Source: a virus
Virus record (IMG/VR): IMGVR_UViG_3300045988_159113
Strand: one strand, 5' to 3'
DNA: 64,000 nt
Below the pieces are notes generated by a model. That model saw only the letters and a program-made list of their open reading frames with translations, was not told the origin of the DNA and searched no databases. Position 1 is the first letter of the stretch. Every line of letters starts with the position of its first letter. Below are positions 1,058 to 61,150 of the stretch, piece by piece. Both the position numbers and the translations under genes were made by a program.

Positions 1058-1060
1058 TTT

Positions 1061-1108: not shown

Positions 1109-1126
1109 ATTTAATTATATTTTACC

Positions 1127-5063: not shown

Positions 5064-5066
5064 TAT

Positions 5067-5348: not shown

Positions 5349-5682
5349 TCTTGACATGTCATTCCAGCCATTCGAGACAGAAGAGCACTTGATAGGTGCA
5401 GAATCAGCGGCTGACCTGATAGAGCATTTGCACGACGTGTTCCCTGATCGAACATACATCGTAGAACGCGAGGACTGGATGGAAGACGAGGATTGGGAAG
5501 AAGTGCTTGAAATGGAAGAGTGTGAACCAGGGACAGAAAAAATACAGCCTGGAATTTCAGAGGAAAAAGAAGCGGAAATCAGGGAGTCTATGGAAGGACA
5601 TTTCCCGAGAGTTAAACTTGTCGAGGGATTATTTAGCGATAAGAAATACGTAATTTTATACACAGATTATCATATAGAATAA
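5320..5682 (+). CDS. acidic hypothetical protein
   Basis: 120-aa ORF, strongly Glu/Asp-rich (EREDWMEDEDWEEVLEMEECE). Confidence 0.5.
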   Translation: MEKKMYQVFSLDMSFQPFETEEHLIGAESAADLIEHLHDVFPDRTYIVEREDWMEDEDWEEVLEMEECEPGTEKIQPGISEEKEAEIRESMEGHFPRVKLVEGLFSDKKYVILYTDYHIE

Positions 5683-5683
5683 A

Positions 5684-6445: not shown

Positions 6446-6658
6446 ATGGCACGAAGAATAGTAAAGCATACATACGCAGATGGAAGATCTGAGTATGTAA
6501 TACAAACAAATCGAATTTTTGGATTCATACCTATTCCATGGTGGATAGAAGAATTTGATGAATTTGATACTGGAATATATTATACACTAGACGCAGCGAT
6601 TGACGCTTTGAATTATTCAACACTTGTAAAATCCGAAGTAATAAAAACACGTAAATAG
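6446..6658 (+). CDS. hypothetical protein
   Basis: 70-aa ORF with a TAAATG junction upstream. It ends in TAG (6656..6658), directly before a strong terminator. Confidence 0.5.
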   Translation: MARRIVKHTYADGRSEYVIQTNRIFGFIPIPWWIEEFDEFDTGIYYTLDAAIDALNYSTLVKSEVIKTRK

Positions 6659-6665
6659 AACACAA

Positions 6666-6719
6666 GGGGGTGGTGAGTATCTGGAAAAATCCAGGTATTC
6701 ATCACCCCCTTTTTTTTTT
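6666..6719 (+). terminator. rho-independent terminator of the rightward operon
   Basis: A 19-nt arm GGGGGTGGTGAGTATCTGG pairs with CCAGGTATTCATCACCCCC. The three non-Watson-Crick positions are G-U pairs only in the + strand RNA. Loop is AAAAAT, followed by T10. Confidence 0.8.
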
Positions 6720-6753
6720 AAAAATATTATTATTGTCTAAAATATTAAAAATC

Positions 6754-7434
6754 ATGGGAGATAAAGCAAAGAAAGTAAGAACGAGCATGGCGTCAAGAGG
6801 CCCAAGCTCAAGGTGTAATACTAAACAGTGCGCATAGTTTTCAAATGGTGAATTGAGAGATGCCGGTTTTAAAGTTTACGGTAATGCTTGGAATTTATCC
6901 GGAACAAAAGACGTTATCAATGGATATAGAGAAACAGGCGGCTCAAATGATAAACCATTCAATGAGGCAGAATACAACAAAATGAATGCACAAGCTGCCA
7001 AGTATATATATGATAATCTAAATACTCAAGACTTAGATACCAACAAAGTCTATACTGTGAACATGTTTCACCCTTCAAGTACATTCAAAAAGCGAGCATA
7101 TGATGAAAGCCGAAGAAGAACGTATGGCACACATACAGGTATATTGTCGTATGATCCAGGAACACAAGGTGGACACGGAGCTAGCAAATGGTATGTGACA
7201 CATAATGAAGGCGGACATGTGAAGAGAGAGCCATTTTCTACTATGCAATATTCTGGGAAAAATGGAATTCCAACAACTGGGTCATATGTCACACAGATAT
7301 CAGAACCTCTTGAAAATAGAAATATTTTTGAAAGATTCCTTGACAAATTGAGAAGTATGATTGGATTATATGAAAATGGTGGTAAGATATAGAAAAGAAT
7401 AATTCGTAGGAATTTTTTATATGATTATAAATAA
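6754..7434 (+). CDS. papain-fold (CHAP/NlpC-P60-like) putative cell-wall hydrolase; needs TAG readthrough
   Basis: ATG at 6754. There is an in-frame TAG at 6835..6837 inside CNTKQCA[TAG]FSNGELRDAGF, a Cys-motif typical of CHAP/NlpC enzymes. A His motif GTHTGIL lies downstream. The TAG at 7390..7392 would be read through to TAA at 7432..7434, just before the terminator hairpin. Confidence 0.55.
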
Positions 7435-10400: not shown

Positions 10401-12268
10401 ATATTACCAATTGTTGCTTCAGCAATAAGAGAGTCAGCTTGAGACTAAAAATACACATCATCTCGTCCAATACCAGCGCAAAGGTTTTTCATAATGCCAA
10501 AATTCTTTCCTTTATTACCCTCTGCTTCCTAGAAAGTCTTTGCATTATACAAGCCATAGTCAAGATTTTGTGTGGAAATTCTTTTGATATCCAATTCATT
10601 TGTTATAACATTACGCAACATGATAACACCAAACTACTCGGCTGCATCGCAATCAACAACTTTCCATTGCTTATTGCAATACTTTGCAAATCGCTCTTTG
10701 AACCAAGTTGCAGATAATCCGTGATGATTTGCTGATGCACTTGGGAATTTTACTTCTGATGTTTCATTTTCAATTCCCTCTTTTAATGCTGCAACAGTTG
10801 CATCATATTTTATCATTCGAAGGTTTCTGTCATCTTCAATGTATTTCTTAACCTAAGCCATCAGCGTTGCTTCTGCATCAGGTCCGGCTTTAACAACAAA
10901 AGTCTTTCCAGAACCTCCTCCATATGTATATGAAAGGTTGCCATCTTTATTTGGAGTGAATCCACCAGCTTCGTTTATTTTATCTCTTAGCCATTTGTCG
11001 TCAACCTTTCTTCTATCTGAATATGTGGGAAATAATCTTGCCATTCTATCTTTTACCTTTGTTAGAATCTGATCTGCTGGTATTGATATGCTATATTTGA
11101 ATGGTAAAATTTCATTCAAGTTTGCTTGTGTCCTTTCATTAGTTAACTATACAGTGATATCTTTCAATCCCTCAGTTTTACAATTTTCAAATGAGAATTT
11201 GTCTGTTGTTTCATCTAAATGAAAGCCATCCATCTGAATAGGTAAAACATAAGCCTTCTTGTCTTTCATGCGCAAGCCTAAATCGGACAACATTCTTTGA
11301 TATAAACCAATCTGATGAAACACTGTAATTTGTTTTGCGCTTGAATAATCAGAGAAAGCGTGAATAGATGTTTTGTAATCCACAATGTGCGTTTGTCCGT
11401 GTTTATCAATAACTACCAAGTCAGCAATACCATAGAGTTGTTGTGTGCATTTTGATGCGCCAATATGCGATTTAGCAGTCAAAGGCATCTCGGTGTAAAA
11501 TGTCAATGGACCCTACAACGAACTATTCAACTAATCATAGAATGTTTTTGCAATATCAATAACCTATGAAATCTAATCTAAAGATATACGTTCTGCATTC
11601 TCCGGTTTTAACATTCCATGTATCTTGCGACGGTCTGCATCTGAATTTGCGCCTAATGTCTACAGCCTTATCTTATATTCTTCGCTCTCGCCAGATACTT
11701 TCTAAAATAACAGTTGCAAAACTTCATGGATAGCAGTTCCGGTATACGCTTGTTCTTTCCATTTCCTTGTTATTCTTTTCCTGTAATCTTTGAATGTCGC
11801 ATCATCTCCTTTTGCTAATTTATGAGTTGTGCCATCATCTCCTGGACCAAACAAGTATTCAGCAACATCTTTTGAATATTCACCTTTTTCGAATTTTTCA
11901 CGAAGATTTTTCCACAGATTATCAGAATTGAATTCAGGGACCATATGATCTCCATTGATATTTCGAACAGCACCTAGAAATTTATTCACACCAGTATAAG
12001 GAGCAACTTCGCCATTCAGAAGGTTTCCATCATCATCGAATTCAGCCCTATTTGAATGCATGAACTCATTCATCTTTTTACGCAATTTGGATGTCTCTTC
12101 ACCATGTTTTTTTATCAGTTCATCCGCCTTTATTTGCTGTTCGCTAATACTGAAAACAAGATCTTTGTATTTAGCATACAGCTCACCTTTCTACATCAAA
12201 AAATCTTCAAGTTCAAGTTCAGATGTGAAAGGATTAATTCTTCCTTTTATATAATATACACAAGCCAT
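7475..12268 (-). CDS. 1597-aa giant protein with N-terminal RecB/Cas4-type PD-(D/E)xK nuclease domain and C-terminal hydrophobic segments
   Basis: One frame runs from ATG 12266..12268 (GGAGG about 10 nt upstream; TAATG overlap with the upstream gene) to TAA 7475..7477. It contains 23 in-frame TAGs and no TAA/TGA (hand-scanned). Motifs: GTAIHE, IADLVVID, IVDYKT, QIGLY. Confidence 0.8.
11300..11740 (-). other. PD-(D/E)xK nuclease core motifs
   Basis: GTAIHEVLQ (11723..11740), D in IADLVVID (11420..11422), DYK (11372..11380) and QxxxY in QIGLYQ (about 11300). The core is interrupted by six in-frame TAGs. Confidence 0.65.
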
Positions 12269-13341
12269 TAGTCACACACCTCCTTTAATTGTCCAGATTT
12301 AAGCATTGCTGATTTCATATTGTTCAATTTTCTATGTATAGAACTATCTTCTAATGGAAAAGAATTCACTGATGTCATCTTTGATGAATTGACTAAATCA
12401 GCAATTTGTTTCAATGAATATTTCCCAATATCCTATAGTTTAAGATCTCGTATTCCAAAAGAGCCTTCTAGCATTGTATCTATCATTCTATTAACCTAAA
12501 ATTGAACTTGATATGCAATATCAGGATCTATAGAATCAAATACAGATTTCTGGCCAGTTATAAATTTAGAGTATTCAGTCACAAAGATTTCTTCATTTAT
12601 ATCATTCCTTGATCTGTTAGGATATGTGCGCGCCATTTTCTCATAATTAGGAAGCTATTCGGATAAAGATATGAGTTGCATATAAAGATCAGGCTTTGCA
12701 AACCTTAGCTATCCAATAAGCATGTGAGACAATTCATGTATAGGAGAATCAACAGAATAGTTGTTCATGTTTATATATATCTACCCATTTAGAATGAATG
12801 CTTTTGGATTTGGATCTACTGCTATCACATCTTTAAACATTGGATCATTATGCAAATCATGCAAGTATACCTATTTGAAATGTATACCATACAAAGTTGC
12901 AAGTTTTCCAAATGCTGTATCAAGTATAATTTTAGAATTAACTTCCTCGTCAGGCTTGTATCTAACTTCAAAATTATTGTTGTATTTACTTGGACGGTGT
13001 GATATATTAACAATTGATGTTTTATTTAAAGGTAAAATATCAAATTCCAAATCATTATATGTATCTTGAGTATTTAATAATACAACAGCCTCATCAACAG
13101 TGTCAACCTGAAATTTATCTGTCAATTTAGATGTTTCTGTTGTATTGTTTTCTCGCAGCTCTAAAAATTCACGAGCATGCTCAGTAGTATCAGATCCATC
13201 TATTTCTGCTGGAGTCGGCCATCTGCCATTATGCTTGTCAGCATAGTCGATTATTTCTGCTTCAAGAAATAAATCAGAGAGACCGGTCCTCTCACTCAAG
13301 GACCGGTACTCATAACTTTTTTTATTTATACATGCATTCAT
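12268..13341 (-). CDS. 357-aa zincin-like (HExxH) metallopeptidase
   Basis: ATG 13339..13341 lies 2 nt after the TGA of the upstream gene. It ends at TAA 12268..12270 and has six in-frame TAGs. The motif SPIHELSHMLIG places HELSH at 12724..12738. Confidence 0.7.
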
Positions 13342-38688: not shown

Positions 38689-40608
38689 TCAAAGTTTTGA
38701 AGGATCAACATACCTTGCTTTTACATCATCTTTGTGTTTAGTTATCTATTGCTATGTCTCTATTACCTATGAATATGCAGGAGGTAACTTCTCACCTGAT
38801 CCAGATTGGGCAGAGAAATAATCAACTTTGACTGGAACAAATACGGTTCCTTTGTAATAGTGATCATGACCATTCCAATCGTACCAGTTATCTTCATCAA
38901 ATTCAAATCCTCCTTCACCATCTTTCTCCCAGTTATTCGCTTTCTTAATTTGGGCTGTGATATTTTTGATTCTATTGTCATCCTTAATCTCTTCCAGATA
39001 TTGATTTTCATCAAAATCAGCATCACCCATTGCCTTATCATATGCTATAGCATTGATGACTCCAAATCTTCTCCATGCTCCATTTTTTATCAACTGACCA
39101 GTCTTGTCATATGCAACCGGCAATTGATGTTGCTGATATACTTGGTTTATTTCGTCGACATGCTCAGCAATCTATTCTGGACTATTCATCAAGATACCTT
39201 TTTCTCTAAGTTCCTGATCAGCTTTCGTCTTCCTTTGCATAGCATCAAAATCTGGAGCAATCTCTCCTTGCTGTGCTTTCTCTAAATCAATAGGCATATC
39301 TACAGAATGAATAACGCTGTCATTGGTCAACACTTGATTCATTGTTTCAGGATTGAGTTTTTGACCGCCAATTGATGCATTAGTCCAATCAAGTATTCCT
39401 GTATACTGACTTTTTGTAATATCCTATATTGTTGAAATAGCGCCATATGGTGTGCCCTCTTTTGACACAATTGGTAAATCATTACCGAAAGTTTTAATGC
39501 CATCCACGGTTTGGTTTTGAATAACAAACTAGCTTTTGTTTCCGTAGCCAAGCATCCACTATGTTGCCACATTCATATCCTATCCATCTTTTGTTGCAGT
39601 AGCTTTTGCTCCTGGCTTATTTCCTGTTGTATCTTCTACAAGATTGCGATCAATAGTTTGTTTTGAAGATGTCGTCATTCCGACCTTCTGTCCAATGATG
39701 ACATTCTTGATATAATTCAGCGCTTCTTTATCACTTGCCTTTCCGCTTTTAATATGCAGCAACTATTTCGCATTTTCTGGCAATTGGTTATATATATAAC
39801 TGATTGCTTCCTGTGCTTGTCTTGCCTGTGTCTCTGTTAAAGATTTAATCTTATACAAGCCATCAACAGAAACAGACGCAATATCTTCGCCATTGTATGC
39901 CTTTTCAACAAGAGCCTATAAAGCTTGCTGTCTTTGCTATGTCTTTTTTGATATGTACTGACTTGATGATTCTTCATCTTTCCCTAGACTCATCATGTAC
40001 TATTTGATAAGTTTGTCAACTTGCTCTAACCCAATGCCATTGTTGACTATTTCCATTACCGTATTATCATATGCTGAATTTTTATTTTGTGCTCTATAAT
40101 CCAACAGATTAGAATTTGTGTAAAGGCTATATTTGCTTGGGTCCTGCAAATATGTTTCTATCTTTATTGGTTTAGGCTCATTTTTTTCGTTACGAACAAA
40201 CACATATCCTCCTTGTCCTATAGCAACCTCATTTAGGCCCTTGTTCTAGCTCACAGTCTTGTATGCTTTATCATATTCCTGTTTATTAAATTCTGCGCGT
40301 TTAAGGTCATGCATAGCACTAAGATATTGTGTCGATAAATCACCAGTGCTTATTCCGAGATCTTGCAAGTCAAAAAACCTTGACAATCTGGAGTATATCT
40401 GTTCCATATCAGAAGGTAAACCTTTAATATTTCCAAGAAGATTCATCAAGTCCTTATTCGTAAGTTGTCCCTTGTCTTCTTTTGTTTTTGTTGTAGTATC
40501 ATCGGTTTCCACTTGTCTGGATAGTCCCAAATCAACAGTCACTGGCCTATATACTGAGAACGGGGGCATTGATCCCCCGCTCTACATCTAGTTAATTTTA
40601 TATATCAT
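38689..40608 (-). CDS. 639-aa virion-block protein (alternative start at 40569 gives 626 aa)
   Basis: Same frame as the 3379-aa gene but closed by TGA 38689..38691. ATG 40606..40608 forms an ATGA overlap with the upstream gene's stop. It has 13-15 in-frame TAGs and no recognised motif. Confidence 0.65.
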
Positions 40609-43600
40609 TTTATGAATCGTTTAATTGCATTCAATTCATCCTTTGACAATCTATCTATTGATTTTGATAATAATTTGCAACTATCAGCTATTTGCTTTGC
40701 AAGTCTATCATTGTTACTTTTTGATCTTTTCACATCAGTATCATCTATTTTTATGCCTTTCTTTGCTTCTGGTATACCTGTAACAGTATAGCTATCAATC
40801 GATCTCTTCGTGGGTGAACCAGAACGCAAATCCATCATATTGTATAATTTCAAGCCCTTTCTCTTAGCCAATTCATTATATATATCAATCTTGTCTTGCA
40901 GTCCTTTTGTTGCTTCGTACTATTGCAATTGAAGCTTCCTCTTGTAGAATTCCTCAGGTGAAATATTCGGATCAAGCAGCGATTTCTTCAGCTTGTTATA
41001 TTCAGGTCTGCTGTTCATCCATTGCTAGAAATTAAGTGGCATCATTATACTATCATACTTGTTTTGTGCATATTCTTTCTTTTGGCGATCTTGCGCCCAA
41101 AGCGTTCCACGCGTATTTTGAATTGCACCAAGATAATTCTGCGTGCTGTCATTGTCATATGCAATATATGCTGACTTTGCCCTTGTCTTATTGTTTGCAA
41201 GTTCTGCTAATGCAGCACTATTCTATGTCTATGTCTTGAGATTATCCTGATATACATTTTGATTCAGACTGAGCTAATTTTCACCAGTCTTGTACATCCG
41301 ATCATTATATATAGCATTGCCCTGCATATTCATCTTACCAGCTGTACTTGCACCTTCAAGTGCTGCCGCATTGTTTATATTTGCATCAGATGACTTTGCT
41401 TTTCCAGCTTGTGATTGAATCTGTGCGCCTTGCTATCTTTGACTCTCTTGACCGAGGTAATCACCATATGTATATCGGTGCATGTTCATCGGATTCTTTA
41501 ACGAAGTCCTGATGTTCAACATTTCCTGAAGTCTGCGCTTGTTATTCTTTCTGTTAGAAAGATAACGACCAAATCCAAGTGCATCGTATGCAAGCTTATT
41601 CATATTGCCATCAAGATAGGTTCGCACTTTGTTGAGCCAATTACTACCTTCGCCTTCTCCATCTCCACCAGTATTGAATCCACCACCGCGTCCGGTATTT
41701 TCTCCAGTAATCTCTCCAGCTGCAGGTTTTGGTTTCCCTTCATTCATTAATGAATTAGCCTGTTCTTCTGTTAACTTTGCAATATCACCATTGGCTTTTT
41801 TATATACATATGCAGTTTCACCATTTGACAATTTAATAGGATGAATTCTTGACATCTTACCTTCAAGTGTATCCTTGTCCCACTCTGTCTTATATCGGTC
41901 CATTCGACGCATCCAGGTTTGGGTTCCCATTGTGTCATCGATATTGTCCTGATATCCAATGTTCCAGTTTATACCTCTATTATTTGAATTTTGGCTTCTA
42001 TTATAGAACATCTATTTGAACAATCGGTTGTGATCTTGTATATTCTGGCCTTTATCGGTGTTTGCACTGTATGCCGTATCTATAGTTGAGCCATCAGGCT
42101 GCACACCCCAGAAACTCCTGATCTTACCAGCATCTGTGTTGTAATGACTTATGAAATCATCGATATTGTCAGTGTTATATGCTGTTTGATAGTATCGCTG
42201 CAAATCATCGCCTACTATATCTGCTTGTGATGTATATGCGTCATTTTTTGCAGCAGCCTGTCCAAGATCGAAATTTTTATTGTGATCATTTGCATTCAAA
42301 TCAGAATTTGCAAACTGGTTCCTATTTCTAAGATTTGCATTTCCAAGATTCTTCTATTTCCACAGGTCATTATACCATGCCCAATCTTCTGGGTTCTGTA
42401 CAACTTTATCTCCGTCTGCAGCCTTTAAGATGCCACCTTTAGCGTTAGATGATATGGCGGTGGAATCAATATCATCTGAGGTAAAATTTACGTCACGCAA
42501 AGATCTCATGCGTTCAAGAACACCACCATGCTTAAATGGAGGTGCTGTTGTTGTACTGCCTCCAGCGGGTGTTGGTGCAGTAGTAGCTGATGGTGGCGTT
42601 GTTGGTGCAGCAGTTCCTCCAGTTGGAGCTCCGCCTGTTGTTGGCGTGGTAGTAGTACCGCCTCCTGTGGTGGGTGTCACTGCAGGTCTCGGCCTTGGAC
42701 GTGTTGTTCTCGGTGCTTTTACTTTAATCTCTATTGAATCATCGGCATTCATGATTCTATCCATCAAATTGTCAAGATCAACAAATGAACCACGCTTTGC
42801 TTTCCTTATCGCATTAGCAAATTCAGCTTCAATGTCAGCTACTGTTTTACTTGTTCCGTGAACTTCTTGCAAAAGATAATTTTCTATATCGATTTTTACA
42901 TCTCTGCCATTCACATCATGCAAATTTTCTGGAAGCATATCTTTTAATCTGTCAGTCACAACATCAATATCTCCAAGAATCTGATTTTTCTCTGTTTCAG
43001 TTTTGACGGTCAATTTCCCTTTTAGCTTTGTGCTTAATTTATTATTAGCTGCGGCAATCTAACTTTTAGCAGCATTTTCTGCTCTTTGTGCGTTTGCTTT
43101 ATTTATTGCGTCCTTTGTTTGAGCTCTACGTTCAATAAACTGTCTTGTTTTTGTATTGAGTTCATATTCACTCATATCTGGATGTCTTGTTTTCAGATTA
43201 TCTCGTCTTGCTTGTGCGTATGTCTATATTTCTGCAATTTCGTCAGGATCGAAACCATAGCTTGCAACTTTTCTGGCTGTTGCTTTCTCTGCGGCTTCAT
43301 CAGTACGTATAAGTCTTAACTCGTTCTGTATATCTATATCTGTCAATGCAGAACCTGTTCCAGTTTTAGAAAACTCATCATTGTTTTTGTTTATATAATC
43401 ATTGAGTTTCTGCTTTTCAGAATTTGTCAATCCTCCACGTGTAGCCTCTGCTGCTTCTAAACGGTCAAATGCTGATTTGTTAGCATTATATCTATCTCTT
43501 AAAGCTCTAAACTCAGCCTCTGATACGGTAGAGCCAGCCGCTCTTGCTCTAAGCTCTGCATTATTAGACATTTCTGAACCAGCTGATGCCTTCCATGCTT

Positions 43601-46600
43601 CAAGCTCGCCAAGGGATTTTGCAGTATCAAATTTAGTTTGAAGTTCTGCGTTTACAAGTGCAGTATGCGTAGGATCATTCGATAATTTATAAACAGCCGT
43701 GACATCAGAATCATCAGCTGCTGCTATACCATTGCGACGTGCATAATCAGCAAGATCATTCAGTTTTGTTCTTGATGTAGTAGTAGCGTATAAATCATCA
43801 GCTATCAAATTGCCGGCTGCATCTTTTGCACCATATGTTCCAACTCTTCCCTCAATGAGTCTTTGATTTGCAATTTCTCCAGACTTCAAGCCTCTACCCA
43901 TATCTTCGCGAAGCATCAATGCTATATCTATGTCATCAGCATATCTTGGCGTTGCTGCGTTCGGATCAAAATTAGGATCAATCTTGCCGGAATAATATTC
44001 ACGAAGTGCCTTCTGCTGTTCAGGATTAAGACCATCAAAAAGATTGTCCATGATCTTTGGACCAGCTCCTGCAGTTCCTTTCAGATATTCTTTCGCAAGT
44101 TGTGTCTTCTTATATTGAGGCTGTGGGCCATGCACTCTTTCATAATCTGCTATATAATCAAGCACTGGCTGCTTATCTTTTCTTGTTCCAAACCAATCCT
44201 GGAATTGCTTTGCATCATATGCTTTTGTTCCGGGTTTTCCAGCCTGTTTTTCAATCTCTCTTTCAGTTATTATTTTGTTATCGAGCATATTATCAGTCCT
44301 TGTTCTAACTGCTCCCATGCCACGCGACATTTCAGCATTGGTATTGAGGTAATCCATGGCCCAACCTAAACCTTTACCTAAGTATGCGCGATCAGCTGCT
44401 CTTTGGCCAACTCTCATTCTAAGATTGCGCAATCCATCGGCAGTCTTTGGATCATAAGCGTACCCACTTTTAGTTTTCATTCCATCCCAGAATCCAACCT
44501 CATCGGTAAAGTCTCCAATCTTCGGACCACGTTTGAAATGACTTGTCCAACCTGTTGCCTTAGTCCAACCATCAGGCATAACAACAGGAGCATTTGGATT
44601 TACACCAACAGATATATCATGAGCTTTTACTTGGTTCAATCCTTCAAATTTAGATTTGGCAGCATCAAGTCCAGCAACTTCCTATAATTCAGCAAGTTTT
44701 GTATCATATGCTGTCTTTTCTGCAGCACTCAAACTTGATATTTCAGTATCGGCAGGCTTGCCGATTCCTTTCATGACTTGATCTTTGCCTATTGCATCAG
44801 CTGCCGTCTTATATGCTGAACGCATATTCTTTTGATCCTATACGCTCAGTTTTATTTCTGCTGCATTACCGTCTACATCAACCATATTCAAAACTTTTGG
44901 AGATGTAGGATCAGCATTGTTTGTCAACCAATTGCCAGCATGGACATCATCACTCCAAAGTACATTTGCCTAATGTCTTGTGTTAGAGTACTACAATGCT
45001 TGTTCTGGAGTTCCTGCTTTAGCCCAAGCTTCACCGACAGCCTTATTGACACTTTCTGATGTTGCGCCTTCTGCTTTTACAGCTTTATCAAAAGCTGCCT
45101 TCATTGCTTTCTTCTGCTTAGCTGATACTTTTATCTCGTTGCCATTAGCATCAGTGAAAAGGAAACTATTGCCACGTCCTGCGCCTTCTGATGTTGATGC
45201 CATAGGCTGATAAAGACCTCTAAATGCAGCCTTCGCATTTCTACCAGGAGATAATGCAAGGATAGGATCACTGACAAACGCTGCTGCTTTTCCTGCTATA
45301 TTATTGCCAAATTTAGCTGCAGCTTGTCCAGACAGTGATTTGGTACCAGTAGCAGCTCCGGAAGCCATAGAATAATAAGCATCAAGTTCTCGTGCTTCTT
45401 CGTGAGAAAGCGTGCCTGCTTTATCCTTTGCTCTCAACTCCTTGATTCTATCGAGATTTGACAGAACATTGTAAGCACCCAAGCCTGTCATTCCGAGCTG
45501 TGCTGCTGCCTTTCCTGCTTTTACAAGACCTCCACCAGGTATGAGCATCAAGCCGGTCATTCCTGCGTTTATAGCAAGGTTGCGCATCATCTCACTACGC
45601 GATACGCTGTCATCCATTGCATCAGCTATTAAGTTGCCGACTGTTCCAGCTGTTCCTCCAATGGCACCTATAGCATTACCAATAACAGGAACAAAAGAAG
45701 CAATACCGCTTGCAATATCAAGGTTTGTGCTCCATTTGCGAAGAGATGAACCTTTTTGAGTTCCGGCTTTTTGCTTGCCTTTCTTTACATCTTCAACAGA
45801 CATATTCCTGGCCTTAGCTTCTGCTTCGTATCTCAGTTCACGTTCTGCATCGTTCTACTGATTAGCTTGCTGTCCAAGAGCTGCAAGATCATAACCACTA
45901 GCAGCTTTGATAATTCCACCTGTACGCAAAGCTTCAAGTTTAGCACCATATTTAGCCCAGACATGAGCGCCTCCAGCTGATGTTCTACGACGTCTTGGAT
46001 TCTTCTTTTGATATTCAGATTTTAGATACTGGTATAAAAGTGGAGTTTCTGAATCACTCACATGTACTCTAGAGAATTGTTTTGTTTTCTTGTTGTACAT
46101 CAAAGCGGTTCCGTTCTCGTAGTTTATTGTTTTGTTAAGATAGAAACGATCCTCGTCAACAGGCGTGATATAAGAAGGATTCTTTTCAAATTCCATCATG
46201 ATACCACGCAAAATATTAGAGTTGGTCATTCCATTGGGGCCTAATTGGTTAGGATTAATACGCTGTCCATTCATAACCAACTCGAGCAACTTATCTGCAT
46301 ACTGTGCGTTTCTCTGATCAGAAAGCCAAGATGGTGTAGAATCAGCCTCGCTAGTTCCAGAAATGCCGCTCCATTTATCATGCATTGCCTGATCCCAAGC
46401 TCTGGTATCAAGTTGCTGCTCTTCATTGAATGTGTCGCCTGTCCATCCCCAGTGATTGTTTGCCCAATTCTAATAGTTGCGATTGTATGTTGCATCTCCG
46501 TATTTTCTATCTTTCCAATCTTCCGTGAATTCCTGAAGTGCTGCACGGTACTCTTCTTGAGTAATAACTCCTGCCTTGAGCTCTGCATCAAGCTCCTTCT

Positions 46601-47447
46601 TCTTCATCTTGAGCTGATTATTGTATGATTCAGGATCATCATCAACTTCCTCTTCTTGACCATTGCCAAGTAAACGTTCACGTAATGATCTGCCAAATCC
46701 TATAGCGTCTAATGCTGTTGCATCATTATTGTCGTATGTTCCATCTGCTAATGATGCGGCTGCTTCTGCGAGCTTCTGCTTATAATCTGCAAGATCATGG
46801 AATGCACTACCCTGAAAATCAAACGAGTCATCGTTTAGAGTTCCTGCATAATCGGTAAGCATCTGTGCAAGAGCGTTTGCTCTATTTGTATTACCACGTA
46901 CTCCATTATCGTCTAATGCATCACGATCAACCCAAGATTGAAGATCTGCATCCTCATTTCCGCCATAGAATCTATTCCAGAAATATTTTCTAAGAGCGCC
47001 AAAGTTATACTTTTCTTTTTCTTTAGCTTTAGGTGCTTCATATTGAGGCGCTGATTCCAAAATCTTGTCTAACAAGCCAAGACCATATGATTGCATCTTG
47101 TTATCATCTCCAAGAAATGTTCCAGAGTAGATCATACCATCGCCACGTCTCAAAGACCCATCACGCAGTCCTTGCTGGATTTTTGCAGCTTCATTCAAAA
47201 ACTGATTATATTTCTTGCTGCCTCTACGGAATCCTATATGCTCAGCAAACAAAGGAATATTCTTTTCGTAAAGTTCTGCAAGCTTAGCAGCATCATATTT
47301 CCCACTTGATGTCTAAAATAATACGGGCTGCTCTTCATCGGAAACGGGGGCCTCTACAACTACCTATTCCTTAGGCACAGATGGATCACTTCCAACTACC
47401 GTTCCGCCTGTTTGTAATTTTTTAATATATTGACTCATATTTTGCAT
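40605..47447 (-). CDS. 2280-aa giant protein with glycine-zipper/hydrophobic region and Thr/Pro/Gly linker (ejection or cargo-type candidate)
   Basis: ATG 47445..47447 is the first ATG after in-frame TAA 47448 and lies just downstream of a terminator. It ends at TGA 40605..40607. It has 18 in-frame TAGs and no other stops (hand-scanned). The segment IASGIASFVPVIGNAIGAIGGTAGTVGNLI...MTGLMLIPGGGLVKAG is glycine-zipper-like. Confidence 0.8.
42537..42713 (-). repeat. low-complexity Thr/Pro/Gly/Ala linker
   Basis: Encodes PRTTRPRPRPAVTPTTGGGTTTTPTTGGAPTGGTAAPTTPPSATTAPTPAGGSTTTAPP. This is a local GC spike that spawns spurious ORFs on both strands. Confidence 0.8.
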
Positions 47448-47454
47448 TTAAACT

Positions 47455-47486
47455 AAAAAAGGAGGTATAAATTATTATATACCTCC
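47455..47486 (-). terminator. rho-independent terminator after the small GC-rich gene
   Basis: On the - strand, GGAGGTATA-TAATAATT-TATACCTCC forms a 9-bp stem followed by TTTTTT. It lies 30 nt after TAA 47516..47518. Confidence 0.75.
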
Positions 47487-47515
47487 TCCGTCCTTAAACC
47501 ATTAATTTCTATTTA

Positions 47516-47887
47516 TTACCTACGGATGTAGCCTACGAGTTTACCACCTCTGCGATACACGGGCTCGCCCTGAGGAGCTTCCTGCTTGGGTGCGCCTCCG
47601 CCCTGCTGCATCATCTGGATAAACTGCACAATGCCATCGCAAGCCTGCATAGCAGTATTGCAGTCCTGACTCTGTAAAGCCTGAGCTGCCATCTGGCCGA
47701 TCTGCATCAACATTTCCATTGGATCACCGCCACCCTGAGGTGCACCGCCCTCCTGGGGCTGCTCTGCGGGTTCCTCTTCCATGGGAGCCTCAGCGGGAGC
47801 TCCACCTTCAGCTGGTGCGTCTACAGGACCGCCCTGCTGGAACTTCTTAACGCCCACAACGGGCACATTACGAAATCGAATATTCAT
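47516..47887 (-). CDS. 123-aa Gly/Ala/Pro/Gln/Glu-rich protein with basic termini (abundant virion or scaffold-like candidate)
   Basis: Complete ATG-to-TAA ORF at about 55-58% GC. It has no TAG codon, its own downstream terminator and a repeat-rich upstream region. Confidence 0.7.
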   Translation of the reverse strand: MNIRFRNVPVVGVKKFQQGGPVDAPAEGGAPAEAPMEEEPAEQPQEGGAPQGGGDPMEMLMQIGQMAAQALQSQDCNTAMQACDGIVQFIQMMQQGGGAPKQEAPQGEPVYRRGGKLVGYIRR

Positions 47888-47974
47888 ATTTGTTGTTAAG
47901 TTTAATTAAACGTTTCGAGAATTAACGCAACAATTATAGTATTAAATTATCACATTATATGAATTACTTTTTAA

Positions 47975-48107
47975 TGGACACGAAAAATATAGTATATATA
48001 CTGGATACGAAAAGACCGCTATGGTGGACACGAAAAAACATTTTTCCTCATTCAAGTTTAAGCGTATACTGGACACACCTTTTTTACTTATATACTTGGA
48101 CACACCT
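47975..48107. repeat. five direct copies of TGGACAC (GTGTCCA on the - strand), three extended to TATACT(T)GGAyAC
   Basis: Copies lie at 47975, 48002 (TGGATAC), 48025, 48070 and 48097, giving spacings of 27, 23, 45 and 27 nt. The first three are followed by CGAAAAA and the last two by ACCT. They sit in the intergenic region upstream of gene 47516..47887. Confidence 0.7.
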
Positions 48108-48111
48108 CGAA

Positions 48112-49986
48112 TCACTCTTCTCCTCTTTTTGTTCCTCCTTGGATAAGCTTTCCGTTTAAGTTTAGCCAATTCTCCGGATTTTCTCTAGTTTGGAAATATC
48201 TGATATATTCCTCATCTGTATATTGTGTTCCGTCTTTCTTCTTATGATCCTTTGGCGGTGTATAGATCCACCTGTCCCCGTCTTGTTTCCATGCATCTTT
48301 ATTTACTCCTGGCCATGTGATATGCGGTTCTAATTTATAGTCTCCGTTCATATGCGGCCAGTTCCAGAATTTATTTTTTGGTGCTTCTTTAGCTGCTTCT
48401 CGATCTTTCTTTTGCCACTCGTCGTATTCATTTTCGAAAAACGTGTGATAATCGTATGTTCCATCATCTACATCTATCCCTCTACCTCTTAACATATCAA
48501 GGAAAGCCTCGTATTGCCAATCTGTCTTTTTTCCTGGGATTGGATAAGCAGCTTGTACTTTTCCGCGGTATTTCTCACCATCTCCGAATATGAAGCCGAT
48601 GCTAGAGGGCAACCACTCGGTGGCTTTTATATAGTCCTCTTTTGTGTATGGCTTACCGTTCTCGTCAACCTGTCCCTCTGTTGGCCTTATAAACCAATCG
48701 CCGTTGAATAATATAAGGTTCGGGTACCAATCATCAGGTCCCTTTTTCCCGATGTATCTAACATCGTAAGGATTAAAGGCGTAATCTTGCAACTCATCAG
48801 CTATATATGAGTTTTGCGCGTTTCTGTAATTCTTAAACACTTCTGGTTCGTGTTTCTTTTTAATACTTCCGCCTTTTTTATGTTCCTCGATTTTCTCTTT
48901 ATCTTCGGGTTTATCAAAGTCTTTCATCTTTATGACAAAACGGCCATCAACTTCACGATTGCGCATTTTCTGATACGCCTCATCTATAGCTTCTGCTGTG
49001 GGTTCTATCTCTTCAACAATAGGGAAGATGTTGGCTTTAATAGAGAAATCAACGCATAGCTATGTCTCGCTTATTCCTCCGATCAGACTTCCGAAAAGTT
49101 CAACACCTGGAAACTCAAGTATCAAGTCTTTGATAGAGATGTCGGGACATTCATCATATGGAGGAATGCCTACTATTGCAAGCTTTCCGCCACAATGCAA
49201 GAGTCTCATGTATTTTTTGAGGTCGTAATTATACGGGATTGTTATAATTCCAAAATCAAACTTTTTCTCAAAAGACTCATCAATCTCTCCGTCCTCCTCT
49301 ATTTTTGCAAACTTTACATCTACTGCACGTGCTAATTCTTCCCTATCCTCTATATCAAAAGCTACAACCTGGCAGTTTATAGCTTTGAGATATTGGGCCG
49401 CCATATGGCCAAGACCACCAAAGCCTGCAACAAAAACAGTTGAACCTTCCTCTACGTTAGCCTGTCTGATAGGTGAGAATGTAGTAATACCAGCACACAT
49501 GAGGGAAGGGATCTTTGGGAGATCTTCCTCTTTACAGTCTACCTTTATTGCAAAGTCTTGCTTTACAACATAACACGTAGAATATCCGCCTTGTGTTATC
49601 TCATCGTTATCATCCCAGTTTTTAGCGTTGTAAGTGAGAACCATTTTCTTGCATTCCTGTTCTCTGCCATGATCGCAAGCACAACACTCACCGCATGAGT
49701 TAATCATGCAGCCTATGCCTGCATAATCTCCAGCTTTGAATTTCTTGACATCCTTTCCGCAACGGATAACTTTTCCAACTATCTCATGACCAGGCACAAG
49801 TGGAAAGTTAGCTTCTCCCCAATGGTTTTCCACAGCGTGGAGATCACTATGACAAATACCAGCATATAAAATTTCAATAAGTATATCATCATCACTAATA
49901 GCGGGACGTGTAAATTCTATCCTCTGGAAATTTTGATGTGGGCCTTGAAGACCAAAGCCTACACATTTTATTCGTTCAATATCCAT
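48112..49986 (-). CDS. 624-aa fusion: Zn-dependent alcohol dehydrogenase (cinnamyl-ADH/YahK-like, about 345 aa) plus a C-terminal domain of about 270 aa with unknown function
   Basis: ADH motifs: GICHSDLH, GHEIVG, a structural-Zn Cys cluster CMINSCGECCACDHGREQEC and GFGGLGHMAAQ. A single in-frame TAG at 49060..49062 gives LIGGISET[Q]LCVDF...IDEAYQKM...GRFVIKM. Stop is TGA 48112..48114. TAATG junction upstream. Confidence 0.8.
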
Positions 49987-51098
49987 TACTTTTTGTTTTT
50001 GTCAAGCTGTACATACTCTGCATCTCTTCCATCCTGTGCGTCTAATTCTTTGAAGACATAACGCCCAAGACTTGCGCAATATTTCTCATATTCCGGACGT
50101 TTCCGATTTTTCCACGCCCTCTTTGCTTTTGTTATTATTACTTTTGTTGATTTTCTTGACATGATACGCTGGCCGGATTTGAGCTGGTACTAAGTCTCCC
50201 CATCACTTCCCAAAACTTCCATAACGTATTCATCATCATCTCCTGGAAGCTCAAGCTCATCTCCTGGTTTTACATCAGCATCTGGGTTAAGCTCTACCAC
50301 AAACTACACATCGTCTTCGTGGATAAGGTTTTCAGATAATGGTGCACCTTCTTTGACAGAGATGCATTCGAAATCTTCATTGAAAAAGCAGATTTTGAGG
50401 GGTATCTCTGTGTCTTTCATCCAATAGTCAACACTACACGGTTTGTCGTAGTAGAAGATCATACCCTGATCTTTTCCAAGATAGCTGACATTTTGCAAAC
50501 CTTCGGCTTTCTCCTCTTCGGTCTTAGCCTCCCAGAGATGGTAGGTGTTGTTCCCTATCTTCGCCTCTACTGTTGGCTTCTCTGGTTGCTGTTTTGACTC
50601 TTCTTGTTTTGCTCCTTGCTATTCTTTCTGGATATTTCCGCCAGTCTTGAACAACTGCATTCCATTGAATGCACGCAATACATGGTCATCATCCATAAGA
50701 GCCAAAAGCTTCTTCATAGATGAGCCGTGCTTTTTCTTGTTTTCTCTTATCTCTTTGATATCTTCGACTGTGTATTTCTTGTCAGATTTAACTGATCCGA
50801 TCACATCTTTCAGCATATCAGAGAACCCGTCGGTCTCGTACGCTATATCAGGGCCTCCCATAGTTATGATGATCTCACTATTACCTCCAAGGATCTTTTC
50901 AAGTCGTGAAGGTTTATAATCATCAAGGCCGTTTGTAAGCCCAAGAGCTTTTAATACAGAACAGATAAGGCAGTCGAGGTTATCGCTATCATTCAGAACT
51001 GCCTGAGGTTTCATTTCCTCCTTTATTTCCTCCTCCTTCTTCGGCTCTTTCTCCTGTGGTATTGTCTCCTCCACAAGATCCTTGAATGTCTTTTTCAT
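49986..51098 (-). CDS. 370-aa protein with central DUF192 (COG1430-like) domain
   Basis: ATG 51096..51098 to TAA 49986..49988. In-frame TAGs at 50619, 50304 and 50190. The DUF192 pattern reads GLQNVSYLGKDQGMIFYY...DYWMKDTEIPLKICFF...DDV[Q]FVVELNPDADVKPGDEL. Confidence 0.7.
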
Positions 51099-51495
51099 GA
51101 TAATATGCCAAATAAAAATATTTTTTCTTTATATAATCACCATTTAATTCTCGCCTGGCCTGTGCAAACATCTCATAATAGTTGGGAATTTCCACCATAT
51201 CCTGCAACTCTTCGAGTTCCATTTCTCGTATGGCTTCCATTTCCACATTCTCGAGTTGTTCTTTTGTAAGCTATGCATCGTGATATTTGGATCTCATATC
51301 AAACGCTGGGGCGTTCTCTTTTATGAATTGTTTGTATTTATACATCACGATCATCATTTCGATAGAGATCCCAAGCGCAGACTCAAACCCATAATACATA
51401 TAACACGGAAGATCCACATAGTGGAATTGTACGGGGTCTCTCCATATGAAAAATTTTTTCTTTAGATTGACCCCGTATTTTATGCTTCTTTTCAT
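50989..51495 (-). CDS. 168-aa hypothetical protein
   Basis: ATG 51493..51495 (ATGA overlap upstream), one TAG at 51271, TGA at 50989. The last 110 nt overlap the next gene in a purine-rich tract, so the true 3' end is uncertain. Confidence 0.5.
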
Positions 51496-52676
51496 ACTTT
51501 GATCTGCTTAATCAACCCGACGCGGTCGTCGGTGTTCTCCATCATCTCTTCAGCGATAAGCTTACCGGCTTCAATAGCAAACTCTTGTTTCTCTTGTGCG
51601 TCATCGCTCTCGTTATACTTATCGCGCAGTTTCTCTACTTTCTCTGTGAGATCAGCGGAAAGGATCCATTCAGAATGTTCTATCTCTGCCACCTATTCCA
51701 CTTGCTACCCATCTTTTGCTATCGTCACGACGGGGATGCCCTTATGTGTTATTTCACCTTTAAGGTCATCCCTCACCTCTTCGATATGGTGTTTGTCTTT
51801 ATGGAGTGCACCCTCTGGCAAAAGAGACATCTGCCCTCCATTCTGGAACATATCGATCGTGTCAATGACTGGCACGTATTCTATCGGTTCCTGTTTTGCG
51901 TGTTGCTTCCTGTGATTATATGCCACACGGTGAGCTATCTAATACTAAGATGGCAATATTCCGCCTTTCTTAGCACTCATCGGCATAGCCGACCAATCCG
52001 TACCATTCATCATATTTTGATATTGCTGGTTATTCATATCTTGCTGATTGGCTAATGCATCCATCAGCATTTTGTTTTGGTTCATTATAGATGCCATGTT
52101 GTTTTGTAGTCTTCCAGCTGCTGCCATCTCATCATTTGCTCGGCCTAATGCTTTCCTACTAAACAGGCCATATTTCTTTCCTGACTTCTCTGCTGCATCC
52201 ATAACATCATCGGCAGCTCCTGAATAAGAATCACCACCAAGTGCCAAGGTCTAGGTGTCAGCTTCCATAGTGTCGGATTTCTTAGCTCCTAAAGCATTGA
52301 TGAGCCCGAAAGGAGTAAGAGCCATAAATGACGAATCCAAGAACGCATCAGTCTTTGTCATTCCCGAAGTCCCGACTCCCATAGAATGCAAGGCTTTTGC
52401 CCCCAATGCTCCGAGCTTCATAATACCGCCAGCCATTGGGTTAATCTAACCGACAGCATCAGCAACGCCATTGTATCCTGCATCTAGTCCTGCGGACAGA
52501 TTGCCATATCTTCCTTGGTAGTTATCAGGTTCAGGGAACAAACCACCTAGTGCATTTGCAGCATTGCCTACTGTTCCCCAGATGGCACCAGGAGAAGCTG
52601 CTGTTTGTTTTAGTCCATCGCTTCCTTTACCGGTACTTACGACTCTACCGCTTGCTGCGTTATTTTCTGTACTCAT
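51492..52676 (-). CDS. 394-aa virion-module protein
   Basis: ATG 52674..52676 (ATGA overlap upstream) to TGA 51492..51494. Six in-frame TAGs at 52446, 52251, 51945, 51939, 51705 and 51693. The frame was hand-scanned and has no other stops. Confidence 0.75.
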
Positions 52677-59318: not shown

Positions 59319-59772
59319 AGGTCATTCCTTCATTCAACAATTCTGCTAAAAGCTTATCGGTATCGTCGTCGAGTGTTATAATCTTCTCGAATGTCCTTGT
59401 CCCTGATTCGACATAAAAAAATGGGTAGTATGCAGTCATGGCACATTGTGCAATATCCACATCTTTGAAATATCCTTTTCGCGCCATCTCGTTAAACTGC
59501 TCGCCTTTGAATCGTTTCATGTATATTGTGATCTTGTAAGATCCAAAACGTCCAACGAACATATTCCCGGTCATCATCACCTCTTTGACTATGTTATAGA
59601 ACATATTTTGAAAAAGATTTCTGACATATCCTCCCGGATCATTAATTCCTGCAAGCTTGAGTCCGACGCCTCCTAGGATTGTTTTATCTTCCCATTTCTT
59701 AGCTATCTCATCAAGATCGAAAGCGTAACCGTAAGCGTTCCTATTATGGCAAGCTTTCCCGTGGTTCTTCAT
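59290..59772 (-). CDS. 160-aa hypothetical (head-tail region)
   Basis: Complete ATG-to-TAA ORF with no TAG. ATGA overlap with the upstream gene. Confidence 0.65.
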   Translation of the reverse strand: MKNHGKACHNRNAYGYAFDLDEIAKKWEDKTILGGVGLKLAGINDPGGYVRNLFQNMFYNIVKEVMMTGNMFVGRFGSYKITIYMKRFKGEQFNEMARKGYFKDVDIAQCAMTAYYPFFYVESGTRTFEKIITLDDDTDKLLAELLNEGMTYDHEIQASI

Positions 59773-60464
59773 TTCGTCGTCGGTTTATACGATTTACCGT
59801 ACAGTTTACGATTCCAGTTTGTCTTTGCGTCAAGTATCGTATCCATCATGTTCTGGTCTATCTGCTGCGGTACTCGTGCATGATCGCATTTAATCAGCCA
59901 CATCTGCCTTAACTGATTCGCAATTTCCAGTAGGTTTGCATTCATGGTCGTTATGCCTTCTTTGTATTTAGTGACATATGAGACATAAACAGCCAAAGCG
60001 TCGACCTCATTATCCGTAAGGTATGGCAAACCGTCATCATCGAGTTCCTGGCCTTCGTATAAGATATCAACTTCAGGATAGGGAAATTCAAAATATAACT
60101 TTTCACCAATCCGTGTATAATGTATCAGCTTACCTTTTGCATATGTTGGATCATGAAATATTTTCATAGCTTCAGTGTACGATTCCGTGAACATACTAGC
60201 AACATCTCCGTTGCTGTTTATTCCGTCGACGTTCTTGTAGTCTTCCATCGGGATCGTTACAGCTTCTATATTTTCAACATTGCATGGCAATTCTACACTG
60301 TTATCTTCTTTGTTAACAGGCAAAACGATATGATAATATCTAACGTTTTGGTTGCCTATGTCATGGTAGCCAATAAGTGCGAGTTCTTCAAACTCGCTCT
60401 CGTCTGTAAATTCTACGCCATACAACAGGTGCGCCTGGTACATGGCTTCCTTAAAATTTCTCAT
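59769..60464 (-). CDS. 231-aa hypothetical (head-tail region)
   Basis: Complete ATG-to-TGA ORF with no TAG. TAATG junction with the upstream gene. Confidence 0.65.
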   Translation of the reverse strand: MRNFKEAMYQAHLLYGVEFTDESEFEELALIGYHDIGNQNVRYYHIVLPVNKEDNSVELPCNVENIEAVTIPMEDYKNVDGINSNGDVASMFTESYTEAMKIFHDPTYAKGKLIHYTRIGEKLYFEFPYPEVDILYEGQELDDDGLPYLTDNEVDALAVYVSYVTKYKEGITTMNANLLEIANQLRQMWLIKCDHARVPQQIDQNMMDTILDAKTNWNRKLYGKSYKPTTK

Positions 60465-61150
60465 TATCCTTCAGCGTATGCCTGATTGTTCGGTAAAATC
60501 TGAGTCTTCATCTGTCTGTAAATGTTAACTTTCTACTGAACAATTCGTTTTTGTATTTCTTCATCTATCCAAGAGTACTGATTGGCCAGGTCTTCATTGC
60601 AGCATCCAAGTTCTTCCACCTGTCTCAAGTCTTTGAACATTGCGACCATCGTGATCGTCTTCATAAGTGGAGCATTGAAAACGTAGCAGTCATACATGCC
60701 GTTTTCGTTTGGTGTTGTATCAATGAAGATATACGGCTTGTTTTTTCCTCTTCTCTTGTATTTATGGTACAGACTCCACTATGCAATGCTTGTGTAAACC
60801 TCAAATGGATTCTGTCTGTCAGGGCTTCCAACATAAGCTATCGACTTGATCCCGAAATCAGTGATGATTTGCGGAATCTCGAAATGCATGATAAGTTCGC
60901 CCTTCTTCTTATTGCTGCAAATAGGGCATCGTTCGATGTCCTTACAGTCGATGTTGATACAGTTAATAGACAGCAATAAATCACGACTAGGCAATACTCC
61001 GTTCATCTGGTATTCCTTAATAACTTTTAGCCTTGTCTGTACTATCTCATCCTCTATCTGTTCAATAGTCAAAGACATATTAGCGTGAGCACCGCGAAGT
61101 CCTGAGATTATGTCGTTCTGTATCCTTGATGCTAGCTTGTCGTAAATCAT
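60464..61150 (-). CDS. 228-aa hypothetical (head-tail region)
   Basis: ATG 61148..61150 to TAA 60464..60466, with TAGs at 60779 and 60533. The track shows only the first 123 aa. Confidence 0.65.

Follow-up and report, generated by a model that had tools for sequence, protein, structure and literature searches.

A zinc-dependent alcohol dehydrogenase gene fused to a phage-specific module in the putative cargo block of a TAG-recoded crAss-like phage

The 64,000 nucleotide stretch of IMG/VR virus record IMGVR_UViG_3300045988_159113 that we analysed (hereafter the window) carries on its minus strand a 624-codon gene whose first 355 residues are predicted to form a complete zinc-dependent alcohol dehydrogenase (ADH) of the cinnamyl alcohol dehydrogenase (CAD)/YahK/Ahr branch of the medium-chain dehydrogenase/reductase (MDR) superfamily, and whose residues 356-624 are confined to this phage lineage and consist of three parts, a charged linker, a region we call X' and a module we call X. 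The gene sits between the muzzle gene and the giant open reading frames (ORFs) of the RNA-polymerase block of what is, judging from its genes, a crAss-like phage, a slot that corresponds by position to the cargo slot of crAss001. We propose, at a little under even odds (a probability of about 0.45), that its product is an active, probably NAD(H)-type ADH acting as an accessory module of the ejected-protein set; packaging, processing at a Gly-Gly motif, site of action and substrate all belong to the proposal. Coordinates of the features discussed are collected in Table 1.

The preliminary description, made from the sequence alone, had recognized an apparently intact enzyme of cinnamyl-ADH/YahK type, and profile, structure and alignment comparisons bear this out. 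The domain matches Pfam ADH_N (PF08240; residues 32-149, 8.5e-23, 81 bits against a cut-off of 23.5) and ADH_zinc_N (PF00107; residues 191-313, 9.4e-13, 48.7 bits against 31.8), PHROG 2640 (4.3e-40) and, over residues 5-356, the PDB entries 3TWO (H. pylori CAD, HpCAD; 5.9e-85) and 1UUF (E. coli YahK; 8.4e-66). The catalytic zinc ligands C45/H67/E68/C164 align with those of 3TWO and 1UUF and are invariant in a set of 22 phage ADHs (48-99% identical) as well as in 96 cellular homologues. All 22 phage proteins also possess the structural zinc ligands C98/C101/C104/C112, the glycines of the dinucleotide motif GFGGLG (G188-x-G190-G191-x-G193) and the His46/Ser47 proton relay. Among six close strains the ratio of nonsynonymous to synonymous substitution rates (dN/dS) ranges from 0.01 to 0.06 in the ADH part and from 0.07 to 0.15 in the C-terminal part. 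The domain is thus probably a catalytically competent alcohol/aldehyde oxidoreductase.

Its cofactor appears to differ from that of the best-matching solved enzymes. The end of strand beta-2 is occupied by Asp211, where the NADP enzymes YahK and HpCAD carry Thr and Ala, respectively. The equivalent residue of horse-liver ADH is Asp223, which we take to be the established NAD(H)-determining Asp of the MDR superfamily; by this precedent NAD(H) rather than NADP(H) is predicted, and the domain is probably NAD(H)-preferring, which makes the NADPH dependence suggested in the preliminary description doubtful. Placement among the NADP(H) aldehyde reductases YahK/Ahr/HpCAD is likewise disfavoured by Asp211 and by scores against the curated NCBIfam equivalogs, none of whose cut-offs is reached (best Ahr, 189.6 bits against a cut-off of 470). 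The phage enzyme shares with HpCAD and YahK both zinc sites, the Rossmann motif and the C-terminal ETQ...RFVI segment; it differs from them in overall sequence (43% and 37% identity, respectively), in Asp211 for their Ala/Thr, in its 270-aa phage-only extension and in its setting in a recoded phage late operon.

The closest cellular relatives are a group of Zn-ADHs with signal peptides from Bacteroidota and other bacteria, represented by P0068 of Phocaeicola dorei and P0053 of Cloacibacterium, which are 45-50% identical to the phage enzyme and share its beta-2 Asp and all of its ligands. Each of the 96 closest cellular ADHs (among P0019-P0121) has an N-terminal extension of 11-64 aa, signal-peptide-like in those inspected, an example being the ...AVQAQ of the Phocaeicola dorei ADH. 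Unlike these, none of the 22 phage ADHs bears such an extension, and the two sets separate in 200 of 200 bootstraps. The cellular proteins imply a family of exported Zn-ADHs, mostly of Bacteroidota, which would be odd for a nicotinamide-dependent enzyme. The missing signals in the phage copies are compatible with envelope delivery through the phage tail, and equally with a cytoplasmic role.

The gene can be read only if TAG is a sense codon. From 49986 a single frame runs for 624 codons to a TGA stop, interrupted by one TAG at codon 309; with TAG as a stop, as in the standard bacterial code, only shorter ORFs are left, one of 308 aa (49060..49986) and one of 284 aa (48112..48966). Codon 309 falls on a Gln that is invariant in 96 of 96 cellular and 20 of 22 phage homologues, and close relatives have CAA or CAG at this position, with TAG instead at other Gln positions (110, 371). 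A conserved Gln site that is spelled CAA/CAG in relatives argues that TAG encodes Gln here and that the gene is meant for recoded reading, making it a clean internal proof of TAG = Gln recoding. Across the whole minus-strand arm (~7.4-64 kb), treating TAG as sense opens ORFs of 5063, 3379, 2280, 2001 and 1597 aa and raises the combined length of all ORFs of 150 aa or more from 8,097 to 20,756 aa; treating TGA as sense yields no comparable gain. The gene is translated late, under the TAG = Gln regime, and we count the exchange of TAG with CAR at Gln positions among strains toward late expression. Translational coupling to the upstream gene through TAATG, noted in the preliminary description, is also real: the stop of the upstream DUF192 gene shares bases with the ADH start. 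A scan for promoters and terminators around the ADH gene gave counts no higher than chance. As to the extent of recoding, TAG = Gln is confined to the minus-strand late arm (7475-64000), where TAG makes up 0-43% of the Gln codons of individual genes; in the plus-strand arm (1-7434) in-frame TAG is absent from the genes at 1127-6445 and occurs twice in the last ORF (6754-7434). No tRNA or suppressor tRNA gene was found in the 64-kb window.

The C-terminal region resembles nothing characterized in the collections searched. No Pfam or PHROG family matches its ~270 aa, in agreement with the preliminary account of a fusion to a domain of no known family ending at the TGA at 48112-48114. Its sole match among 5.8 billion proteins was a 96% identical fragment, and a HMMER search of 1.84 billion cluster representatives recovered ten proteins: P0122, which is an orthologue over the full length, four further members of its family that are fragments, P0127-P0129, whose match is limited to the final ~125 residues, and a pair of unrelated repeat proteins. 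A profile of the region compared with PDB sequences gave only E > 1, and a word-indexed search with the X-module profile added just two further small proteins. X' repeats part of X, the shared pattern being W-x-x-x-P...G-x-x-Y-T-x-E-x-Y-I (E = 0.002, single comparison).

Structure prediction, proposed in the preliminary description as a check of this domain, was only partly successful. An AlphaFold model of the whole 269-aa region was poor (predicted local distance difference test, pLDDT, 54) and was not used for fold searches, whereas X alone, modelled with eight diverse sequences, was confident (pLDDT 87, predicted template modelling score 0.75), in which a long helix leads into a beta-hairpin, followed by another helix and another hairpin. 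Foldseek searches with the X model returned nothing significant, either from PDB (best E 0.94, TM 0.24) or from the predicted viral structures of BFVD (best E 0.19). Three of the ten top BFVD matches are uncharacterised proteins of uncultured crAss-like phages, which at this level of significance is suggestive only, and tblastn detected no sequence link.

The ADH, DUF192 and X parts recur in other combinations. Writing A for ADH, D for DUF192 plus its tail and N for the N-terminal part of the DUF192 protein, with hyphens joining parts of one protein, the window encodes N-D followed by A-X'-X. L010 has A and N-D as separate proteins together with a free X-like protein (P0133), and in L008 X is attached to a member of the 394-aa family and A to D (A-D). 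The A-D form is also found in P0021-25, P0029 and P0035. P0127 is X-N-D, P0128 is X-D, P0129 is X standing alone, and P0017 joins A to a different C-terminus; MT835470 and MT835492 have D alone, with no A. The A-X'-X fusion itself is found in several protein clusters, P0002 (777 member sequences), P0004, P0006 and P0122. Such fusions between neighbours are a classical sign of shared function and suggest one for ADH, DUF192 and X. We know of no function for the DUF192 family, and this is the first functional context for it known to us.

Comparison of close strains shows how variable the locus is. Each of the five nearest IMG/VR relatives, contigs of 139-197 kb with 92-95% identity over the C-terminal part, has the gene. 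Three strains have an in-frame TAA just past the linker, L004 at codon 400 (CAA in the window) and, independently, L005 and L006 at codon 414. Downstream of it X'-X has no other stop and is under purifying selection (both halves of the gene have dN/dS far below 1), and module X begins exactly at the next in-frame ATG. These strains may represent a fusion in the course of splitting into two genes, or a very recent knockout. TAG-free insertions flank the gene: a 209-aa ORF upstream in L003, a 149-aa ORF upstream in L004, and in the downstream spacer of L005 and L006 a TAG-free 506-aa protein with Walker-A/DExH motifs, the same gene being split in L004. The locus is an insertion hotspot, yet the ADH domain is intact in all strains.

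A short Gly-Gly motif marks the places where these modules meet. A hydrophobic or Lys-type residue followed by x-x-G-G occurs at nearly all module junctions and after the ADH in nearly all of its fusions. It reads H-K-K-G-G in the ADH linker of the window, H-Q-E-G-G in P0004 and P0023, F-Q-D-G-G in P0021, F-K-T-G-G in the DUF192 protein of the window, F-Q-N-G-G in the 394-aa family, M-Q-S-G-G or L-Q-S-G-G near residue 8 of the 639-aa family, L-Q-T-G-G near residue 11 of the 2280-aa family, and F-Q-Q-G-G (N-terminal) and Y-R-R-G-G (C-terminal) in the 123-aa family; in these last three families, all downstream in the cargo block, it is kept at residues 8-20. We counted the pattern [FLMIYKH][QKRAE]xGG in five genomes (window, L008, L010, L092, L093), with 300 shuffles per set. 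The cargo-block proteins of the window (38689-52676, minus strand) contain 11 motifs against 3.5 expected and those of the four other genomes 9-11 against 2.1-2.5, and none of the 300 shuffles reached the observed count in any of the five sets. This enrichment, 3-5 fold, is restricted to products of the genes that separate the muzzle gene from the giant ORFs: a control set of muzzle, tail and giant proteins of the window had 3 motifs against 5.3 expected, and the smaller control sets of the other genomes were also unenriched. The crAss001 protein gp45 has many x-x-G-G sites, including one at residue 20 and others at the borders of two structurally resolved segments, which would point to a general occurrence of the motif in Crassvirales. 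The motif could mark a site of processing, act as a docking peptide or form a hinge, and it may define assembly or processing of crassvirus cargo proteins. No protease candidate for it was found; two HExxH proteins, possible metalloproteases encoded within or close to the cargo block, one in the window (12268..13341, minus strand, H-E-L-S-H) and one in L010 (8244..9449, H-E-L-G-G-H), were rejected as they are not mutually homologous and belong to no Pfam family.

The slot itself is recognized by its neighbours. The muzzle (tail-tip) gene lies ~2.7 kb upstream of the ADH gene, and two ORFs at 59769..61150 have sub-threshold matches to crassvirus ring proteins 1 and 2. The order along the minus strand is ring-like ORFs, muzzle, 394 aa, 168 aa, 370 aa (DUF192), 624 aa (ADH-X), a 224-nt spacer, 123, 2280, 639, 3379 and 5063 aa, so that the ADH gene stands, as the preliminary description had placed it, between tail-type genes and a cargo block. 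The giant ORFs begin at 47447 and run downstream, the one of 5063 aa having a single DxDxD (D-Y-D-I-D, aa 3939). In the 370-aa partner, DUF192 (PF02643) covers residues 191-283 at 57.6 bits against a cut-off of 27, with a PDB match to 3M7A at 6.8e-9; of the two DUF192 relatives with solved structures, one carries the deposited name 'hypothetical signal peptide protein'. In crAss001 the corresponding order is muzzle gp44, cargo gp45 and gp46, then the virion RNA-polymerase proteins gp47, gp49 and gp50; in this phage, the one crassvirus with a solved virion, mass spectrometry detected all of these products in the particle, and their ejection has been proposed (PMC10172136).

Synteny in relatives, a check that the preliminary description had called for, shows the same slot in L008, L010, L094 and L096, among relatives with structural proteins of only 24-62% identity. 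The ADH is downstream of the muzzle gene in L008, L010 and L094, and in L008, L010 and L096 it adjoins or is fused with DUF192 and is followed by proteins of ~100, ~1500-2000 and ~640 aa. The only deposited relatives of the lineage are MT835470 and MT835492, unannotated 'Bacteriophage sp.' records with 46% identity over the C-terminal part of the muzzle protein; both keep the muzzle-to-cargo order with a stand-alone DUF192 gene and no ADH. MT835470.1 is 117 kb long and uses the standard code, and MT835492.1 is 122 kb long with TAG recoded (loci L092 and L093). A megablast of 44-56 kb against deposited phages found no match.

Table 1. Features at and around the ADH-X gene of the window
Feature	Coordinates	Strand	Basis or remark
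Whole gene, ADH - linker - X' - X fusion	48112..49986	-	Needs TAG = Gln; like architecture in L003, L007, P0002, P0004, P0006, P0122
Zn-dependent medium-chain ADH domain (predicted), aa 1-355 (GroES-like + Rossmann)	48922..49986	-	Pfam, PHROG and PDB matches, alignment
In-frame TAG, codon 309, Gln of conserved G-G-I-x-E-T-Q motif	49060..49062	-	Homologue alignment
Charged linker, aa 356-400, with junction motif H-K-K-G-G (aa 369-373)	48868..48882 (motif)	-	Sequence motif
X' region, aa ~401-502	48481..48786	-	Partial copy of the hairpin-helix-hairpin unit of module X; low-confidence model
Module X, aa 503-624, 122 aa, phage-only, ends I-Q-G-G	48115..48480	-	HMMER relatives, structure model
TGA stop	48112-48114	-	
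Upstream partner, 370 aa: N-terminal part, F-K-T-G-G, DUF192 (aa 191-283), conserved basic tail	49986..51098	-	Pfam, PDB
Gly-rich conserved 394-aa protein with F-Q-N-G-G	51492..52676	-	Position of crAss001 cargo C1 (gp45); gp45 similarity undetectable
Crassvirus muzzle protein, 2001 aa	52673..58678	-	Pfam PF25731, 6.6e-14, above cut-off
Intergenic spacer after ADH gene, GTGTCCA/TGGACAC repeat array	47888..48111	.	Repeat counts; insertion hotspot in relatives
Downstream cargo-block genes: 123 aa, 2280 aa, 639 aa	38689..47887	-	Each with Q-x-G-G within first 20 residues; conserved in distant relatives

Put together, the proposal would run as follows. The protein would be synthesized late, after the switch to TAG = Gln, as a chain of ADH, charged linker (with K-K-G-G), X' and X, and would act together with the neighbouring DUF192 protein. 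The junction motif (Phi-x-x-G-G, Phi being the hydrophobic residue) and the X modules would serve as handles for processing and/or entry into the cargo zone. At infection the enzyme would exit the virion with the other ejected proteins and then, while the phage genes are still silent, reduce or oxidise an aldehyde or alcohol substrate in the envelope or the cytoplasm of the host. A wider version, unlikely when taken as a whole, would have the lineage pack both a working NAD-linked oxidoreductase and a DUF192 protein and eject both at the start of infection, as phage versions of exported bacterial proteins delivered via the tail and not via Sec, with the Gly-Gly motif a general crassvirus cargo signal that marks, links or releases modules.

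Several observations weigh against packaging and ejection. In relatives the muzzle-to-cargo slot also holds plainly non-virion genes, for a glycosyltransferase, RepL, GIY-YIG, an amidase and PhoH, and in close strains TAG-free insertions lie directly beside the ADH, so that position alone is weak evidence. The ADH is missing from MT835470 and MT835492 and is therefore dispensable for virion building, and since three strains have a TAA after the linker, the fusion is not obligatory. The 394-aa and 639-aa neighbours gave no link to crAss001 gp45/gp46 by BLASTP (E = 0.36 and 0.50) or hhalign (probability 0.6%), which we attribute to a very distant lineage, a distance at which the test is uninformative. 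Passage through the tail would require a two-zinc and probably oligomeric enzyme first to unfold and then to refold. The motif, moreover, was defined post hoc on the window, and its replication elsewhere is partly at orthologous positions. Finally, the lineage has no cultured relative, its deposited relatives being two unannotated records.

Some of these points favour a late auxiliary metabolic enzyme that stays unpackaged in the cytoplasm, serving in aldehyde reduction or detoxification or in NAD+/NADH balance, its place in the operon setting only the timing of expression; we regard this as a serious possibility, though well short of an even chance. Such an enzyme would be expected to be wholly intact and constrained as an enzyme, as the ADH is; Zn-ADHs are already catalogued in phages as the non-structural PHROG 2640 (category 'other'); the slot hosts non-structural genes in relatives and accepts insertions; and two relatives keep the rest of the block with no ADH. 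What it leaves unexplained are the repeated fusions to DUF192 plus tail and to X, which is also attached to cargo-block proteins, the presence on the ADH of a junction motif specific to the cargo block, and the fact that the slot was kept while the ADH diverged as far as the structural genes did. Even an unpackaged product would make this one of the few phage structural operons with a metabolic enzyme of ancient origin and vertical descent.

An improbable alternative is that the ADH fold has been domesticated for a structural or binding role with no turnover, for example as a zinc-stabilised nucleotide-binding plug or adaptor in the virion. The position among virion genes, the fusion to phage-only domains and the low equivalog scores would suit such a role, but the catalytic Cys/His/Glu/Cys, the Ser/His relay and GxGGxG are invariant in all 22 phage ADHs, which is unexpected after loss of catalysis.

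The preliminary description had judged a relatively recent capture from a cellular genome to fit the single TAG of the gene and a GC content higher than that of its neighbours. The first observation holds in part: TAG accounts for one of its 21 Gln codons, against 24% in the remaining late genes taken together (binomial P = 0.02), but four of those genes lack TAG altogether. The second does not hold, the GC content being 0.405 against 0.405, 0.419, 0.399 and 0.457 in adjacent genes, with GC at third codon positions also equal to that of the neighbours. The search for a donor lineage named none: the best cellular ADH among 5.8 billion proteins is 50% identical, and in GTDB genomes a profile scan reached at best 47% and a single-protein scan found nothing. 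A neighbour-joining tree that included HpCAD and YahK split all 22 phage ADHs from the rest in every one of 200 bootstraps. More distant phage ADHs (48-62% identity) are found on contigs of 33-148 kb. Identity of the ADH to distant relatives is 49-54%, against 27-62% for the neighbouring proteins, so the ADH has changed in step with its neighbours and to a smaller degree than most. Of the marks of a moron or auxiliary metabolic gene (AMG), neither foreign composition nor a close donor was found, and the distribution is partly patchy, the gene being absent from MT835470 and MT835492. A recently captured moron, unadapted to the phage, is thus very improbable in spite of the low TAG use and of a locus variable among close strains; the best reading of the sequence comparisons is that the ADH was gained once, long ago, in an ancestor of the crAss-like lineage and has been inherited vertically since. 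Among 50,697 deposited phage records a tblastn search with the ADH matched 42. The two best 'Bacteriophage sp.' records among these, MT835574.1 and MT835866.1 (L001, L002), were rejected as phage ADH carriers, since at 72-74% GC they resemble an actinobacterial chromosome and not a phage, and most of the other matches are draft-genome contigs filed in the phage collection.

A chimeric assembly or a decaying pseudogene we consider next to impossible: ADH and MoCF sequences are plainly joined into a chimera in P0003, from a 2-kb contig, and three strains have an in-frame TAA, but the five IMG/VR contigs, 139-197 kb long, share the fusion, as do several protein clusters independent of one another (P0002, P0004, P0006, P0122), and dN/dS is well below 1 in both halves, TAA-bearing alleles included.

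Comparison with known systems helps to place the ejection proposal. The window gene shares its genomic slot with the crAss001 cargo proteins gp45 (C1), gp46 (C2) and gp47/49/50 (PMC10172136), of which gp45 is likewise rich in x-x-G-G. It differs in that its neighbours have no sequence or profile similarity to gp45/gp46 and that the crAss001 set contains no oxidoreductase.

Head-packaged, injected enzymes are familiar from other phages, such as the T4 Alt ADP-ribosyltransferase, the P1 Dar proteins and the N4 virion RNA polymerase. If the ADH is indeed ejected, it would resemble these in being made late, targeted to the particle and active at the start of infection; none of them is an oxidoreductase, and their targeting signals are unrelated in sequence to the features described here. 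The T4 capsid-targeting sequence is cleaved by the prohead protease. Processing at Gly-Gly occurs in eukaryotic viruses: the adenovirus protease cuts (M/I/L)-X-G-G before the following residue, and the polyprotein of African swine fever virus is cut at G-G-X sites. The likeness, a short hydrophobic-x-x-G-G between modules and near N-termini, is a lead only; in the phage motif the hydrophobic residue is one position further from G-G than in the adenovirus site, and no protease candidate accompanies it. With phage AMGs, and with the PHROG 2640 family ('zinc containing alcohol dehydrogenase superfamily'), the gene shares the presence of a cellular-type metabolic enzyme on a phage genome, and differs from AMGs in its fixed place in a virion/cargo operon, in being apparently ancient and vertically inherited, and in its fusion to lineage-specific modules.

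Zn-ADHs are ordinary enzymes, and ADH genes among phage families are already known (PHROG 2640). In the crAss-like genomics and structure papers that we read we found no mention of a dehydrogenase, an oxidoreductase or DUF192, and elsewhere no virion ADH. What appears to be undescribed is an ancient, vertically inherited ADH in a crAss-like cargo block, the joining of this ADH to DUF192 and to a fold without known relatives, and the shared Gly-Gly motif. Among phages of the human gut, crassviruses are the most abundant, and to our knowledge their injected content beyond DNA and RNA polymerase is largely unknown; the gene offers as handles a candidate injected enzyme with an assayable activity and a functional context for DUF192. 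PADLOC defence models matched neither the ADH-X protein nor the DUF192 protein.

Some further features of the locus are of note. The spacer downstream of the ADH gene forms the border between the muzzle-to-ADH gene string and the next, and contains three copies of GTRTCCANNATA (0.22 expected in the whole window); its repeat array is 85-110 nt longer in L003 and L007. These repeats could be binding sites for a regulatory protein or a recombination hotspot. The 123-aa protein beyond it (47516-47887, minus strand) is encoded at 57.5% GC, against a window average of ~37%, is rich in Pro, Ala, Gly and Gln, and has no TAG among its 17 Gln codons; Q-Q-G-G lies near its N-terminus and Y-R-R-G-G near its C-terminus, and it is kept in all relatives examined, directly before a protein of ~1500-2300 aa. 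On the other side, the 168-aa ORF (50989-51495, minus strand) and the beginning of the DUF192 gene share 110 nt, read in different frames. Because L010 keeps the same DUF192 start, M-K-K-T-F, it may be that the 168-aa ORF has been assigned a wrong end, or that the overlap is genuine.

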